Assembly (NCBI GenBank): GCA_964510055.1
Contig: CAZDZY010000004.1
Location: forward strand, 1 to 56,789
DNA length: 56,789 bases
From: an uncultured Christensenellaceae bacterium
Lineage (GTDB): Bacteria; Bacillota; Clostridia; Christensenellales; SZUA-584
Direction of reading: 5' to 3'
Part shown: piece after piece, positions 460 through 5,952 of the stretch
Numbering within the stretch: position 1 is the stretch's first letter
How the letters are laid out: each line of letters starts with the position of its first letter
The notes under the pieces: model-generated
The model's input: the letters and a program-made list of their open reading frames with translations, nothing else
What the model was told of the DNA's origin: nothing
The model's database searches: none
Translations under genes and position numbers: made by a program

Positions 460-620
460 GCCTCCTTTGGAAAGGAGGTGGACCCTGCGCCCGAGAGCGC
501 AGGGGACGGAGGATTGTTTAATTCTTAATTTTGCTTATCTATTGCTAATTATCTATTCTCAACAATCCTCAGTCAGCTCCGCTTTCAGCATTCGCTGACA
601 GCTCCTTTCCAAAGGAGCCT
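460..620. repeat. REPIN-like element, family A (CCTCCTTTGGAAAGGAGGTGGACCCTGCGC...GGGGACGGAGGATT / AATCCTCAGTCAGCT...CTCCTTTCCAAAGGAGCC)
   Basis: Two inverted hairpin arms around an AT-rich spacer; related copies at 6590-6768 and 10667-10909, partial copies near 15767-15812 and 19650-19695. Confidence 0.8.
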
Positions 621-726
621 ATATATCTAAAGAAGATTGCCTCCCTCGTTAAATGGTGGGGCCGCTTCAGCGGCAGAGGGGTCCGTCGTTTTCCCCCCCA
701 AAAAAGCGCATAAAAAAAAGGCTATA

Positions 727-924
727 TCAGTCTATAACCTTTTCCGGCGTCTTCGGCCAATCATAGCCCGCCTTTAGCGGCCTTATGTACCTTTCCGCCG
801 CGCTTCCTGCCTCCGCCGTAACGGCAGCCGTATCGTTCGCGCGCCTGCCTATCTTAAGCTCCGTGCGCAGCGAATATTCGTCAAGCCCTTCGCTTCTGCA
901 GTACGCTCTTAAGTTGTCGTACAT
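727..924 (-). CDS. hypothetical protein (65 aa)
   Basis: AGGGGGG RBS before ATG; has its own sigmaA-like promoter upstream. Confidence 0.55.
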   Translation of the reverse strand: MYDNLRAYCRSEGLDEYSLRTELKIGRRANDTAAVTAEAGSAAERYIRPLKAGYDWPKTPEKVID

Positions 925-963
925 GTTCTTTCCCCCCTTTCGTTGGGTAATCGGTAATATGGC

Positions 964-1035
964 TTTTGGGTATTACGCCCACTGACTATTATATGCAATA
1001 AAATGTAATTGTCAATACTAATTTTGGGTATTACG
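964..1035 (-). promoter_or_regulatory. sigmaA promoter (TTGACA-16-TATAAT) bracketed by a 14-bp direct repeat TTTTGGGTATTACG (putative operators)
   Basis: Plus-strand TGTCAA 1010-1015 and ATTATA 988-993; exact repeats at 964-977 and 1022-1035. Confidence 0.6.
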
Positions 1036-1244
1036 TATAATATTTTCGACCCGGGCAGAAGCGAACAATCAAATGCTGTTTATCAGCTCGGATGGTGGAC
1101 TATTCCCTCCTTTCCCACTATAAAAAAATTTTTTATATTTCTGTGACAAAGTCACTTATGCGGCAATCTTTATAAATGTTATATTCCGTATGCAGCTTAC
1201 AGGAACAACAAGTTTAAGCCATTAAAGATAATGTAAGCCGTGAT

Positions 1245-1577
1245 GGGTTGCCTCGCCTGCGTCGTCAGGGAGAACGTTAAAGGTATGCATCGGGTATCGA
1301 CGCAAATGCATGACATCAGGTATCAGCTGAAAACTTATATGCAAGACATCGGGTATCGACGGAAAAGCAAGGCATCAGGTATCGACGTAAATGCAGGGCA
1401 TCAGGTATCGACGCAAATGCAAGACATCAGGTATCAGCTGAAAGCGCAATTGTAAGACATCATGTATCCGCAGCTAACGTGAACGACAGGCATCTGGTAT
1501 TGGGAGAAAACGCAGTTTACATTCATTGATTTGGGGAGATGACAGATACACCGCAGGCGAGGGCCTGTATTTTTTTT
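1245..1577 (+). ncRNA. candidate structured non-coding RNA enclosing the repeat array
   Basis: CCTCGCCTGCG (1251-1261) is the perfect reverse complement of CGCAGGCGAGG (1552-1562); inner GTCGTC/GATGAC pairing; T8 tract follows; TG-n-TATATT extended -10 near 1176-1185. Strand and expression are inferred. Confidence 0.4.
1288..1501. repeat. tandem array of 8 CATC(A/G)GGTATC-like motifs with 26- or 33-bp periods
   Basis: Motif starts at 1288, 1314, 1347, 1373, 1399, 1425, 1458, 1491 (periods 26,33,26,26,26,33,33); the last two copies are degenerate. Confidence 0.9.
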
Positions 1578-1920
1578 GGGCTGGCGCCCTTGGCGTGAAA
1601 CCTCACGGTTTTACGCCATTTTTTCCGGCTTTGCTTGTTCCTCACCGGTCGCTAAGTTGTAAACCAAAATACAAGCCATGCTTTTCGCGCCCAGTTCGAA
1701 GATGCGCAAAACCGCAGGGTGTGGGCTGCGCGGGCAAAGCCCGACTCGTGGGCTGGCGCCCTTGGCGTTAAACCTCACGGTTTCCCGCCAGTCCTACCGG
1801 TTTTGCTTGTTCCTCCCTCCGCACAAAATTCCAGCCAAAATGCAAGCTATGCAATTTTGTGCTCTGGTCGAAGCTGCGCAAAACCGCAAGGTGTGGGCTG
1901 CGCGGGCAGAGCCCGACTTG
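1577..1920. repeat. tandem duplication of a 172-bp REPIN/MITE-like unit
   Basis: TGGGCTGGCGCCCTTGGCGT starts at 1577 and 1749; each unit has imperfect inverted arms CCTCACGGTTT.. / ..AAAACCGCAGGG with a more diverged centre. Confidence 0.85.
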
Positions 1921-2048
1921 CCCACGAAATTTTATATATAAATAGAAAGAAACGCCGTACTCCCATAGTCTCCTTCTTCCCTCCTCTCCCCCCCTTTGGA
2001 ACAAATCCGCTGCCGAACCAGTCCAATTATCATAAGGGGGTGCGATCC

Positions 2049-2447
2049 ATGTATAAGCTCAGCCGTATACTCGGCATAATCGGAAGCGCGATCTCGCTGC
2101 TCGAAAGCCTGTTTTTTACGATCATATTCACACATGCCGCTTTTCCCCCCGCCCTGTCAAACAGCCCTGCTAACTTTCTCATCTCCAATGGTTTTACTAT
2201 AGGCATCCTTCTTATGTTTTTCCTGGCGTGCGGGCTTGCCGCAAGCATCAACGTCTGTAAGACCCCTGTAATGTCAGGGGCGGCCATGATTGTATTAGGA
2301 ACGGTTATATTTATATTCGGATGTATCTTTATTCCCGGCGCCCCATTTCTGTCAAGGATGCCGCTCCTTATTCTCGTTGCCGCGGGAGCGCTTGCCCTTT
2401 TAGGTTACTTTGTATTTAAGAAGCCTCCCTGTAAAGACGAGCCATGA
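2049..2447 (+). CDS. 4-TM membrane protein (DUF4064-like), paralog of 3298..4062
   Basis: AAGGGGG RBS then MYKLSRILGIIGS; four hydrophobic segments; start corrected from the ORF-track 1719. Confidence 0.75.
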   Translation: MYKLSRILGIIGSAISLLESLFFTIIFTHAAFPPALSNSPANFLISNGFTIGILLMFFLACGLAASINVCKTPVMSGAAMIVLGTVIFIFGCIFIPGAPFLSRMPLLILVAAGALALLGYFVFKKPPCKDEP

Positions 2448-2573: not shown

Positions 2574-3059
2574 TTATCCGCTCCCGGCCTTTTCTCCCGC
2601 CCAGCTTTGCCTCGCCGCCTCCAGTTTCTTCAGCGCCGCAGCTTTTATCCGCAGCGCCTGACTCTCCTCATAGCAAAGAGCTCTCTGCGTGTATTCCACG
2701 CTTCCGGGCATGTTCCCCCTCTCGCAATACCTTACCCTCACATACTCCCGCTCTCTTCCCGAAAGCCCCGCGCTTTCTATCAGCTCCTCTATGTGCCTTA
2801 TCACGCCGCGCGCGTTGCCGAGCCTGCGCTTTATCTCGTTTAAGTCCTCGCTCCGCTCTTCCAGCAGTATCACGGCTGCTTCCACCGGCCGTGGTATGCG
2901 GTTTTTATCCCTTAAATACCTGTAATCGTGCCCCGGCAGGTAAGCGGCACATTCGTCGTATTGCCGTGCCGCCCTCTCGAGTTCCGCCTCATAGTGCCTT
3001 ATATCCCTTTTGGCGTAGTAGTATTCGGTCAATTCTTCCTCTATATCCGATCTCAGCAT
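2574..3059 (-). CDS. ArpU/RinA-like phage transcriptional activator (C-terminal sigma-region-4-like HTH)
   Basis: 161 aa; N-terminal L..YY + coiled coil, 'RPVEAAVI', then LSGREREYVRVRY...YEESQALRIKAAALKKL, the pattern of RinA/ArpU late-gene activators. Confidence 0.7.
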   Translation of the reverse strand: MLRSDIEEELTEYYYAKRDIRHYEAELERAARQYDECAAYLPGHDYRYLRDKNRIPRPVEAAVILLEERSEDLNEIKRRLGNARGVIRHIEELIESAGLSGREREYVRVRYCERGNMPGSVEYTQRALCYEESQALRIKAAALKKLEAARQSWAGEKAGSG

Positions 3060-3297
3060 TTTTCCCCCGTGATTTTATACGCCGTTACTCGATTTTCTCA
3101 TTCGTTTTGCTTGCGGGGCGGCCCTGCCCACCCGCTTCGCGCGCATAACCTGCGCCGCCCCGCTGCTATGAGCAGCAGCGGGAATATTCGCCATTGCCGC
3201 CCGCAGGAAGATACACTCCGGCAACGAGTCTCAGCACTGATACAATGGAACAAAAACCCGTACCCGGCAGTCAAATATTAAAAGGAGGCGCATCCTA

Positions 3298-4062
3298 ATG
3301 CTAAAAAACTTAAGCCGTATATTCGGCATAGCCGGAAGCGTTCTTACGATGGTGCCGTATGTTGCGTTCATAGTGTATTTGATAGTTGGCGGCCGCGGCA
3401 CAGGCATAGATCAAATCTTTATCATCATATACGCCGCACCCGCCCTGTTCTCTTCCGCCGGTATTATTGCCAGTTTTTTTATCCGCAAAAAGCCCTTTAC
3501 CGCAGGGATTATAATAGCCGTATCTGCCGGACTTAATATTATACCCCTGCCGAGTTCTTTCTTTTTGTTAGAGCTTATGATCCAGGTGAAAGCGATAGCC
3601 GCCCTGCTGCTTGTCGCCGCGGGAATATTTGCTCTTATCAGCTATAAAAGAACTCCTGAAGAACCCCAAAGCGACAGATCAAAGCGGGTGACTGCCGTAC
3701 AGGCTCTCGCGGCAGGTATCTTCAGCCGTACTATAGCCATCATCTGCGCGGCTCTCCATACGCTCCTCTGGGCAGTCTTCTGTATATTCGCTCTTTTCTC
3801 CGAGGTGAAATACTACCTTGTTATCCTGGCTTCCCCTTTCACCATCTCGGCACTCGGGCTTTGGGGAAGCCTGCTTTTACGTAAACATCCGGTACCGGGA
3901 GCATTGCTTATGTTTGTATCGGGGGGATTAGTGTATTTTATAGCGTCTTCAATCCTTCATTATTGGTGGATCCTTATCCTTCCCCTGCTTCTTATCGCCG
4001 CGAGTGTATTCGCCCTTATCAGCTTCTTCATCAGCCGCAAGGCATCCCCGGACAGAACGTAG
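3298..4062 (+). CDS. multi-TM membrane protein, internal duplication of the 4-TM unit
   Basis: AAAGGAGG RBS; halves begin LSRIFGIAGS and FSRTIAIICA and share KP/HP...G and LLL.AA.(I/V)FALIS motifs. Confidence 0.85.
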   Translation: MLKNLSRIFGIAGSVLTMVPYVAFIVYLIVGGRGTGIDQIFIIIYAAPALFSSAGIIASFFIRKKPFTAGIIIAVSAGLNIIPLPSSFFLLELMIQVKAIAALLLVAAGIFALISYKRTPEEPQSDRSKRVTAVQALAAGIFSRTIAIICAALHTLLWAVFCIFALFSEVKYYLVILASPFTISALGLWGSLLLRKHPVPGALLMFVSGGLVYFIASSILHYWWILILPLLLIAASVFALISFFISRKASPDRT

Positions 4063-4076
4063 GCGACCGTTTCCGC

Positions 4077-4268
4077 TCACAGCCCGGCCTTGTCCAGCAT
4101 CCTATCGAGCTGCATCTCGAGCGCCTCCGTATACTTTACTATGAGCCCGGTAAGCACATGCCCCGCCGCCGCCACATCGGCGTCTTTCGTCTTTTCGAAC
4201 TCCTCGAGTACCAGCCTCATCGCCTCGGCTAAGGCGTCCAGCTTCCTGTCCTCTTTTGCGTATTCCAT
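4077..4268 (-). CDS. small helical hypothetical protein (63 aa)
   Basis: GGAGG RBS; amphipathic helical composition; lies in the leftward operon. Confidence 0.7.
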   Translation of the reverse strand: MEYAKEDRKLDALAEAMRLVLEEFEKTKDADVAAAGHVLTGLIVKYTEALEMQLDRMLDKAGL

Positions 4269-4320
4269 ATTCGCTACCTCCGATATCGTATAAAGACCTT
4301 TTGTTCGTTTACATTTCGTT

Positions 4321-4828
4321 TACCATGATGCAACGCGTGTTTCGTGATATAACATGTATGTGCTCACTGGGGCGAACACTGTTCGCCTGTGTTGCCATCC
4401 GCTTTCTTCTTTATAAGAAGGCCAGGGCCGGCTTATATTTTACTCCTGGGCGGCCAGTGGCCGCCCAAATAGCATTTGCCTCTATCCGCTTTCTTCTTTA
4501 TAAGACGGCCAAAGCCGTCTAAAAGTACCATGATGCAAAGCGTGTTTCGTGATATAACATGTATGTGCTCACTGGGGCGAACACTGTTCGCCTGTGTTGT
4601 CATCCGCTTTCTTCTTTTTTTAGACGGCTGGGGCCGGCTAAAAGTACCATTTTTAGACGGCCGGGGCGGCGGTTTTAATCTGTCCGCCGGCCCCTTTAGC
4701 CCGCCTTTGCGCCCCGCAGGATTTTAATGTGCCCCTTGAGGACTTACTAATAAATTCGGAGATCCAAAGCTCACGCGCTTGTGTAATCTCCACATATTCC
4801 GCTTTTTTAAGGAGGCCGGGGACGGCAG
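4321..4828. repeat. modular repeat array: 92-bp duplication (4321-4412 / 4526-4617) plus 4 copies of an ATCCGCTTTCTTCTTT-like + hairpin module
   Basis: Two mismatches in 92 bp at offset 205; module starts at 4397, 4484, 4602 and (degenerate) ~4797. Confidence 0.85.
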
Positions 4829-4910
4829 AAAAACTTGTAAAAGGACCGTCCCCGCTTTTTGCCCCAAAAGGTCTCACGGCCTTTCGGGGACCCCGTTACC
4901 GTTATATGCG

Positions 4911-5099
4911 TTACCATTCCTTCTTTTCCGCGTATGTGAGCCCGGCGCCCTCGATTTTCCCGCCGCATTCCTCGCATAGCCAGTTGTCGTAACACGGCTG
5001 CCCTATCCTTACGACGTTTCCGCACCCCAATGCCTCGCATACGAATGCGATCTCTGGTTCCTCAGCCTCTCCTTCAAACCTGTCAATATCTATATACAT
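4911..5099 (-). CDS. small Cys-rich (zinc-ribbon-like) phage-type protein
   Basis: CEALGC...CYDNWLCEECG; starts 9 nt after the upstream gene. Confidence 0.7.
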   Translation of the reverse strand: MYIDIDRFEGEAEEPEIAFVCEALGCGNVVRIGQPCYDNWLCEECGGKIEGAGLTYAEKKEW

Positions 5100-5108
5100 T
5101 TTCCCACT

Positions 5109-5297
5109 TCACTTTTTACTACTATATTCCCTGACACAGTCACGGGTTCCGCCCCCTGCCCGGCCCCGGCTTCCGTTTTTTCGCTCCGCCCCTGACTCAA
5201 TCCCTTTTATGAAAGCGAGCACCAGGCGTTTTTCCGGCTCTGTCAGCTTGTCCACCTTTTTCTTCAGTTCTTCGGCTTCAGCGGTATCTTTTTGCAT
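5109..5297 (-). CDS. small protein in the Cro position; resembles the XRE C-terminal dimerisation helix
   Basis: First gene behind a consensus promoter; GAGAGG RBS; KLTEPEKRLVLAFIKGI motif; no HTH visible. Confidence 0.75.
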   Translation of the reverse strand: MQKDTAEAEELKKKVDKLTEPEKRLVLAFIKGIESGAERKNGSRGRAGGGTRDCVREYSSKK

Positions 5298-5325
5298 CGC
5301 GGCCTCTCATTTATTTGTATTTCTT

Positions 5326-5406
5326 TGACTCGGTCACATTATAATATGACTCTGTCCAGTTGTCAAGCACTTTTTTATTGCTTAGTCAAGTTTTTTATGC
5401 TAGAAT
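5326..5406. promoter_or_regulatory. divergent sigmaA promoters with TGAC-N3-GTCA operators
   Basis: Minus: TTGACA (5361-5366)-17-TATAAT (5338-5343). Plus: TTGCTT (5378-5383)-17-TAGAAT (5401-5406) with TG extension. Operators TGACTCGGTCA 5326, TGACTCTGTCC 5347, partial TTGCTTAGTCAA 5378. Confidence 0.8.
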
Positions 5407-5447
5407 ATCAATGTTTATGGAATTTGGGTAGGAGGTAATTTAACGCA

Positions 5448-5825
5448 ATGAATATAGGCGAACGGTTATTTCATCTCAGGAAAGAAGTTTTGAAAATTAG
5501 TCAGGAAGAAATGGCAAAAATTTTAAAGATCGAATCCGCCTCTACTATCTCGCTTTTGGAAAAGAATAAAAGGCAATTTACCGACAGGATGGTCGCCGAT
5601 ATCTGCAGGGAGTTCAGCGTAAACGAAAAGTGGCTCCGAAACGGCGAAGGCAGTATGCTGGTAAAGGCGGAGCAGAACGAGCTTGCATTCCTGTTCGGGC
5701 AGCGTGTTTCAGGCATGAGCGAAACAGAGCGGGCAATACTGACCGCCTATTTAAAAATGACAAAGGACCAGAGGGAAGCGCTTATCGCTTTCATTGACAG
5801 TATCATATCAATCAGAGGCCGCTGA
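5448..5825 (+). CDS. XRE/Cro-CI family HTH repressor
   Basis: IGERLFHLRK...SQEEMAKIL...ISLLEK...FSVNEKWLRNGEG; short helical C-terminus, no S24 peptidase domain. Confidence 0.93.
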   Translation: MNIGERLFHLRKEVLKISQEEMAKILKIESASTISLLEKNKRQFTDRMVADICREFSVNEKWLRNGEGSMLVKAEQNELAFLFGQRVSGMSETERAILTAYLKMTKDQREALIAFIDSIISIRGR

Positions 5826-5930
5826 ATCGTATTCATTATTCGATAGCCCTAATATATAAAAGTAAACGAGCTTGAGTTGGTTATCGTCGAGGTTCTCTAA
5901 CAAGGCCGATATTGTGAATAGTAGTGTCAT
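5808..5930 (-). CDS. 40-aa peptide MTLLFTISALLENLDDNQLKLVYFYILGLSNNEYDSAASD; putative SOS-controlled antirepressor
   Basis: Translated by hand; strong AAGGAGGGGG RBS; LexA box upstream; overlaps the XRE 3' end by 18 nt. Confidence 0.6.
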   Translation of the reverse strand: MTLLFTISALLENLDDNQLKLVYFYILGLSNNEYDSAASD

Positions 5931-5952
5931 CACAGCCCCCTCCTTAACTAGG

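Follow-up and report, generated by a model that had tools for sequence, protein, structure and literature searches.

Decoy RNAs with multiple binding sites are familiar from Proteobacteria, where they target CsrA. CsrB, CsrC, RsmY and RsmZ are stand-alone RNAs that carry many copies of a short motif, in variable number and on variable scaffolds, and combine an activator-dependent promoter with an intrinsic terminator (PMC4098024, in part). In Firmicutes, RosA of Bacillus subtilis and RsaI of Staphylococcus aureus are stand-alone RNAs of about 200-400 nt that are controlled by global transcription factors and contain several G-rich stretches (PMC8216469, in part). Among repeat arrays, those of the TIGR systems consist of two alternating 8-12-nt repeats with 9-nt spacers and lie beside a Tas gene encoding a Nop domain (PMC12045711, in part). 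At the level of transcriptional control, the Crp/Fnr-family regulators HcpR and HcpR2 recognise the palindromic boxes TGTGA-N6-TCACA and GTAAC-N4-GTTAC in front of ferredoxin-like and other redox genes in clostridia (PMC1274295, in part).

Here we describe a locus in a 56,789-nt stretch of DNA (the window) from the genome of an uncultured Christensenellaceae bacterium (G000), a spore-forming host of the Clostridia type as indicated by a SASP gene. The locus is likely to encode a small non-coding RNA of about 385 nt (from about 1192 to 1577) that is not a Csr RNA but probably acts as a decoy of the CsrB kind. All the general features of the Csr and Rsm RNAs listed above appear to recur, but the repeat is RCA(U/G)CAGG(U) rather than GGA (with 3-5 GGA and 1-2 ANGGA per RNA), and control appears to run via a Crp/Fnr-type redox-regulon box rather than BarA/UvrY. 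RosA and RsaI are similar in phylum, size, autonomy and mode of control, but neither an Rfam match nor sequence similarity connects them with the locus, in which the dominant repeat is CAUCAGG. The arrangement of RbpB and FopS also differs from that of this RNA (PMC11697453, in part). With TIGR, CRISPR and type III antitoxin arrays the locus shares a promoter, short tandem repeats and a terminator. A TIGR array was rejected given that a single motif recurs at a 26/33-nt period, with no edge/loop alternation and no 36-nt unit of the kind described in the available part of PMC12045711. Moreover, no Nop domain was detected in the 23 window ORFs scanned, up to 26.8 kb. CRISPR arrays alternate a constant repeat with spacers that are each unique and are accompanied by cas genes, and in type III antitoxin loci the repeats are followed by a toxin gene; here the linkers are homologous to one another, and the next ORF encodes a small membrane protein that matches no toxin or Cas family.

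The first-pass annotation had recognised no known family, and the Rfam scan agrees: no match at E<=5 in window positions 600-2400, three chance-level matches far under the gathering score for the homolog in the relative G001, and none at E<=1 for the units in G003 and G005 (see below). In particular, 6S RNA (RF00013) and SRP RNA (RF01854) gave no match in G000, and the related genome G002 encodes ordinary 6S and SRP RNAs in addition to its own motif-bearing RNA. Literature listings returned no description of the RNA, the motif or the box, although the site tables accompanying PMC1274295 may hold the box. This genus-restricted, RNA-like member of a thiol-redox regulon is real and, apparently, undescribed.

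Architecture of the locus

A palindromic operator, TGTGAC-N3-GTCACT (1142..1156, + strand), is followed after 23 nt by an extended -10 element, TG-n-TATATT (1177..1185, +), which is evident in the sequence and absent from the listing of a consensus promoter scan. The operator appears to be a Crp/Fnr-family activator site, its centre lying near -43 relative to a predicted transcription start near 1192. The transcript would open with a 5' hairpin (1195..1238, +) that is closed by GCTTAC (1195-1200) and GTAAGC (1233-1238) and has a variable interior. The hairpin precedes the 5' strand of the closing stem (1243..1266, +), which consists of an outer extension (1243-1249), P1 (1251-1260) and P2 (1261-1266), a GGGAGAA element (1268..1274, +; second copy at 1502), and an array of eight RCATCAGGTATC-like motifs (1287..1501, +). 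The 3' strands of P2 (1538-1543) and P1 (1553-1562) belong to a conserved element, GGGAGATG..CAGGCGAGGG (1534..1563, +), and the locus ends in a terminator-like hairpin (1553-1568), an alternative to the long-range stem, with a T8 tract at 1570-1577 (together 1553..1577, +), where transcription presumably terminates. The perfect 11-bp inverted repeat 1251-1261/1552-1562 with the inner pairing of GTCGTC (1261-1266) and GATGAC (1538-1543), the GGGAGAA repeat, the T8 tract, the extended -10 and the GCTTAC/GTAAGC hairpin had all been noted in the first-pass annotation and are present as described there, as are eight copies of an 11-nt motif at 26- or 33-nt spacing.

The eight copies start at 1288, 1314, 1347, 1373, 1399, 1425, 1458 and 1491, with successive spacings of 26, 33, 26, 26, 26, 33 and 33 nt; four are exact copies of CATCAGGTATC, two read CATCGGGTATC, and one each CATCATGTATC and CATCTGGTATT. 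At no more than one mismatch, the window contains 14 motif matches, compared with a shuffle mean of 2.35, and none of 100 shuffles attained 14. The triple-motif pattern was found in one of 401 genomes of the order, namely G000 itself, in which five clusters of at least four motifs within 200 nt exist when both strands are counted. The linkers are homologous to one another, 84-nt blocks recur at 65-81% identity, and the array has grown by tandem duplication. In G000 the motif core has decayed more slowly than the linkers (mismatches at 4 of 56 core and 21 of 104 linker positions; Fisher p 0.022). Elsewhere in G000, the trailer of a tRNA-Leu gene (G000:C17:23058-23009, -) contains three CATCAGG copies in 50 nt and is duplicated together with the 3' half of the tRNA at C16:320; these copies are probably integrase arm sites.

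Contigs from two sequencing runs of one bioreactor study, X1 (969-2200) and X2 (600-1561), which may be the source samples, show no differences to the window; as two separately assembled contigs agree over the array, it is not an assembly artefact of G000. A third run yielded a variant of 1133-1289 with nine substitutions and one gap, and the eight substitutions listed for it all fall within 1163-1191, outside the box, the hairpin arms and the stem.

As a whole, the 336-nt region folds no better than shuffled sequences (z +1.34), and no stable fold is predicted for the array interior; only the closing helix (1251-1260/1553-1562) is predicted confidently, with pair probabilities of 0.98-1.0. 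The local terminator hairpin at 1553-1568 has a predicted energy of -9.7 kcal/mol, and the long-range stem is predicted to be 4-6 kcal/mol more stable than this hairpin both in G000 and in G001. Since the long-range form is the more stable one and both forms stop just short of the T run, the models point to a discrete transcript rather than an attenuator.

The array region is present in a single copy in G000 (blastn, word size 7) and hence is not an ordinary MITE, an identity that the first-pass annotation had named as a refutation, nor a REP element. Immediately after the T run, at 1577-1918, there are two tandem 172-bp REP/MITE-like palindromic elements with kin on at least eight other G000 contigs. 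On the other side, a perfect (12/12) sigma-70 promoter (1015-988, -) lies between direct repeats resembling GGGTATTACG and drives an ORF of 65 aa (727-924, -) that has no family match and has weak homologs in G002, in G003 and on contig C28 of G000. The proposed link to a phage-type activator did not hold: the RinA-like gene (2574-3059) is encoded on the minus strand 1 kb away and points at the RNA, another gene intervenes, and no such gene lies beside the homologs. Control is instead predicted to run through the Crp/Fnr-type operator at 1142-1156, which the first-pass annotation had overlooked. It is part of a phage/ICE-type regulator cluster (2574-5933) that includes an XRE repressor and several ORFs of 41-63 aa, with no integrase in the ORFs scanned.

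Relatives within one genus

BLAST comparison with 41 relatives identified one other holder, the congeneric G001, in which the match covers both stem arms, with only 17 nt separating the matches. Here the RNA is flanked by a gene that we take to be DegV-like and by a lipoprotein gene, a context unrelated to that in the window. The box, TG-n-TATATT, the GCTTAC/GTAAGC hairpin, GGGAGAA, the closing stem and the T run are all conserved, and the 3' element takes the form GGGAGATG..CAGGCGAGGGCCTGT. P1 and P2 retain every one of their 16 pairs, and the four differences in the 5' strand amount to one compensatory change of G-C to A-U and three changes of C-G to U-G; this covariation involves two sequences, and six of the seven differences in the common 39 nt are also third codon positions of a CxxC frame (see below). 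The eleventh pair of the inverted repeat, as originally delineated, is not retained, and G1261 instead pairs within P2. There are four motifs in G001 compared with eight in G000: one, at the position of the array, occupies the apical loop of a 7-bp hairpin, and three are found elsewhere in the RNA; the interior of the 5' hairpin is about 45 nt longer and contains two motifs, and the interior of the RNA is far shorter than in G000. The proposal of a novel structured non-coding RNA with variable motif number is supported by this homolog, which keeps the stem with another motif number, and by the lack of Rfam matches and of multiple copies. In a BLAST search of 401 genomes of the order, the rod-shaped G001 form retrieved only G000 and one coding chance match.

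A search with the operator, in which the motif was not used, yielded non-coding units (type B, as opposed to type A in G000 and G001) in G003 and G005, and BLAST from G003 added G002; the three units occupy one common locus. They contain five (G003), four (G005) and five (G002) motifs at no more than one mismatch, with shuffle means of 0.26-0.36, have their own 3' closing helix, and include GGGAGATG..CAGGCGATGG. Thus, all five RNAs carry 4-8 motifs (shuffle means 0.25-0.74, P<=0.0005) and none on the opposite strand, so that a strand-specific, multi-copy motif on differing scaffolds, the characteristic of the decoy class, is seen in five of five. In the relatives, motif spacing is irregular (12-51 nt) and non-tandem. 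The consensus is RCA(U/G)CAGG(U), with the core R-C-A-x-C-x-G; R, C, A and the fifth-position C are invariant over 26 instances, which were picked at no more than one mismatch and, being kin, are not independent.

Among 39 box-plus-(-10) promoters at the loci that were fetched, the next 250 nt contain 4-6 motifs in the five RNA units, one motif in five cases and none in 29. The 3'-element pattern that joins types A and B, which was built from these same loci, gives one match per genome in five of the six genus genomes, none in the 34 other family genomes and none in controls. In G000 and G001, no RNA is present at the type-B site, between a Gly-rich gene and a 25-codon ORF, and because this locus is empty there, each genome has one unit. 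The conserved 25-codon ORF is itself followed by two hairpins (L091:1844-1990, G000:C18:33992-34141, G001:C12:9610-9759); this stretch is identical in G002, G003 and G005, is 76-77% identical in G000 and G001, and could be a small protein gene or a second RNA.

The profile of the type-B units (G002/G003/G005) matches neither the G000 nor the G001 RNA, and the covariance models R1 and R2 do not cross-match; given the lack of cross-matches, types A and B may be analogous rather than derived from a common ancestor. Model R1, built on the G001 rod, recovered only G001 from 40 family genomes, in a test weakened by a second helix one column out of register; model R2, built on the type-B 3' domain, recovered nothing below E 0.1 in 101 genomes except the three sequences from which it was made; and of 121 genomes, G003 and G005 alone matched a pattern that combined operator and motif. 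When contig collections were scanned by pattern, the loci retrieved (14 and 11 from viral, 31 from metagenome and 6 from GTDB contigs) were all judged to be chance matches or unrelated coding or AT-rich repeats, none with both stem arms in an RNA-like setting. By sequence search, the element is restricted to one genus among the genomes and collections searched.

The box and its predicted thiol-redox regulon

The operator is an instance of a 15-bp palindromic box with the consensus GT(G/A)AC-N3-(G/A)T(C/T)AC, which is one base shorter than the HcpR and HcpR2 boxes, whose published centres are longer; moreover, the targets observed are trx, prx and rhodanese genes rather than hcp, and no RNA member appears in the available part of PMC1274295. 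The window site scores highest in G000, although it was itself in the training set. Other boxes in G000 precede genes for a 62-aa ferredoxin and a small membrane protein and an operon encoding a ferredoxin and a pyridine-nucleotide-disulfide oxidoreductase, and trxA is preceded by a variant box that was not part of the training set. Genes behind the box in the genus and family encode trxB-like, 1-Cys peroxiredoxin, rhodanese-like and ferritin-like proteins and heliorhodopsin, and in the family a CoA-disulfide-reductase-like gene follows the same operator geometry (the trxA, trxB, rhodanese and ferritin labels were read off the sequences, the other labels being Pfam matches).

The box together with a -10 was found in 23 of 40 family genomes, compared with four genomes for a reversed control pattern, and the distance between the two is 20-24 nt at 39 promoters, a range that the pattern requires. 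A box placed against the -35 region is the geometry of class II Crp activation. As the box abuts the -35 region here, we infer that the promoter of the RNA is activated through it. A Crp/Fnr-family gene in G000 (G000:C124:4154-4774, L167) is directly followed by the box and trxA, and the order Crp/Fnr gene, box, trxA recurs in G002, G004, G005, G008 and G021, and with a variant box in G001 (orthologs L172-L175, L115, L138); in G003, a Crp/Fnr gene before the box and trxA was not found. From gene adjacency, the Crp/Fnr-family protein encoded beside trxA is predicted to be the regulator of the box. With a common palindromic operator, a fixed promoter distance and a regulator gene adjoining one of the sites, the 15-bp box and this Crp/Fnr gene define, at the sequence level, a family-wide thiol-redox regulon. 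Several of these promoters also contain an AT-rich, Fur/PerR-like box just past the -10.

Heliorhodopsin genes (PF18761) lie directly behind the redox operator at L095, L096, L102, L117 and L136 (G014, G017), which may hint at what heliorhodopsin does in these anaerobes.

Decoy model and rival explanations

The reading that we rank first, at slightly under an even chance, is that of a Crp/Fnr-induced, CsrB-like decoy RNA for a protein other than CsrA; a sponge is also the best surviving of the interpretations originally put forward. Under this model, the Crp/Fnr-family regulator would switch on the RNA together with the thiol-redox genes, and the repeated RCA(U/G)CAGG motifs would titrate an RNA-binding protein, much as CsrB does; the closing stem would shield the ends of the RNA and hold the motif region together as a single large loop, and the tandem duplication would have doubled the number of sites in G000. 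Both transcription and protein binding are predictions from sequence features. The box, the -10, the hairpin, the stem and the T run persist in G001 despite the unrelated gene context, and five species have a unit of 4-8 motifs behind the box. Conservation of the motif while its number, spacing and scaffold vary is the pattern of multi-site decoy RNAs (PMC4098024, in part). CsrA (PF02599) is encoded in three of the five genomes (G002-G004) and was not found in G000 or G001 (82% and 89% complete); the combination of a motif other than GGA with the failure to find CsrA in these two genomes favours a decoy for another protein. The motif is not enriched around the start codons of the 1812 G000 genes, and no RRM protein was detected in the five genomes tested. 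Decoy sites are usually exposed; on average, folding predictions give motif positions no higher unpaired probability than other positions.

If the decoy model is correct, a decoy with another motif in a spore-forming anaerobe would point to a new sequence-specific RNA-binding regulator and supply a bait for it, and the oxidative-stress regulon would gain a post-transcriptional arm; the narrow distribution, in one genus, limits the weight of these implications. The broader proposal of a Firmicute counterpart of Csr, in which a Crp/Fnr thiol-redox sensor induces a CAUCAGG decoy that titrates an undescribed global RNA-binding protein, with capacity tuned by site number (4 to 8) and cassette relocation, is tentative, and we lean against it.

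The strongest competitor, although rather doubtful, is an RNA that is induced by stress and acts by base pairing: it could be an sRNA whose seed recurs (CAUCAGGU with ACCUGAUG), or it could soak up another sRNA via its G-rich GGGAG stretches, just as RosA sequesters RoxS and FsrA in B. subtilis. Hfq is present in four of the five genomes tested, the five RNAs contain 3, 2, 1, 1 and 2 copies of GGGAG, the three type-B RNAs agree throughout the GGGGAGAUGGACAGGCGAUGG stretch, and RosA provides a precedent as a stand-alone 229-nt sponge under transcription-factor control with three G-rich regions (PMC8216469, in part). However, the complement of the motif is found at only five start codons in G000, about the number expected by chance (as estimated by hand), part of the 3' GGGAG element of type A lies inside the stem, and idh, the best target, was rejected because the complement is retained in none of three relatives.

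An unlikely reading derives from a 71-codon open frame that starts with M-M-G-C-L-A-C (1240..1455, +) and spans the first two-thirds of the array: the RNA could encode a CxxC micropeptide (M-G-C-L-A-C...), as an mRNA or with a dual function, or could be a leader that senses Cys and through its translation chooses between the long-range stem and the terminator hairpin. The statement that no credible ORF covers the locus was too strong in that the first 12 codons of the CxxC frame are common to G000 and G001, with six of seven differences at third positions and five of them synonymous. A peptide with a CxxC motif would be at home in a thiol-redox regulon, pairing is possible between the 5' arm and the first half of the terminator hairpin, and the next gene is co-directional in both genomes. 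Against this reading, a Shine-Dalgarno sequence is missing in both genomes and the AUG (1243) lies inside the stem extension, the frames differ in length (70 and 21 codons) and are shifted by the 26-nt units, no homolog exists among proteins of 39-125 aa and no Pfam match was obtained, the type-B RNAs contain no such frame, the downstream genes are unrelated, and both stem forms finish just ahead of the T run.

It is also improbable that this is a real small RNA of some other function, the interior of which was inflated by neutral slipped-strand duplication, so that the eight-fold array is meaningless. The recurrence of 84-nt blocks at 65-81% identity and the lack of a stable interior fold are compatible with such inflation, as is the presence of the eight-copy form in only one of 401 genomes, with a single motif at this position in G001; nevertheless, every one of the five RNAs carries several motif copies that are not arranged in tandem, and in G000 the linkers have diverged faster than the motif (p 0.022).

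Least probable is that the motifs act as DNA, namely as directly repeated binding sites for a protein (an iteron, centromere, integrase arm or titration site), and have come to lie behind a redox promoter by chance: direct repeats would likewise be strand-asymmetric, CATCAGG occurs three times in 50 nt behind a duplicated tRNA-Leu end elsewhere in G000, and phage-type regulators are encoded 1-4 kb away, but neither the 26/33-nt spacings nor those of 12-51 nt in the relatives keep helical phase, no rep, par or integrase gene is among the 23 window ORFs scanned, the G-U-tolerant conservation of the stem and the T run fit an RNA, and contexts differ between genomes. The two alternatives to a sponge in the first-pass annotation, an iteron- or centromere-like site and a precursor processed into short units, both fit poorly with the irregular 12-51-nt spacings of the homologs and with the absence of cas, Tas, rep and par genes from the 23 window ORFs scanned. 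Farther along the window, the segment 31566-52261 contains three very long ORFs of 2155, 2168 and 2376 aa.
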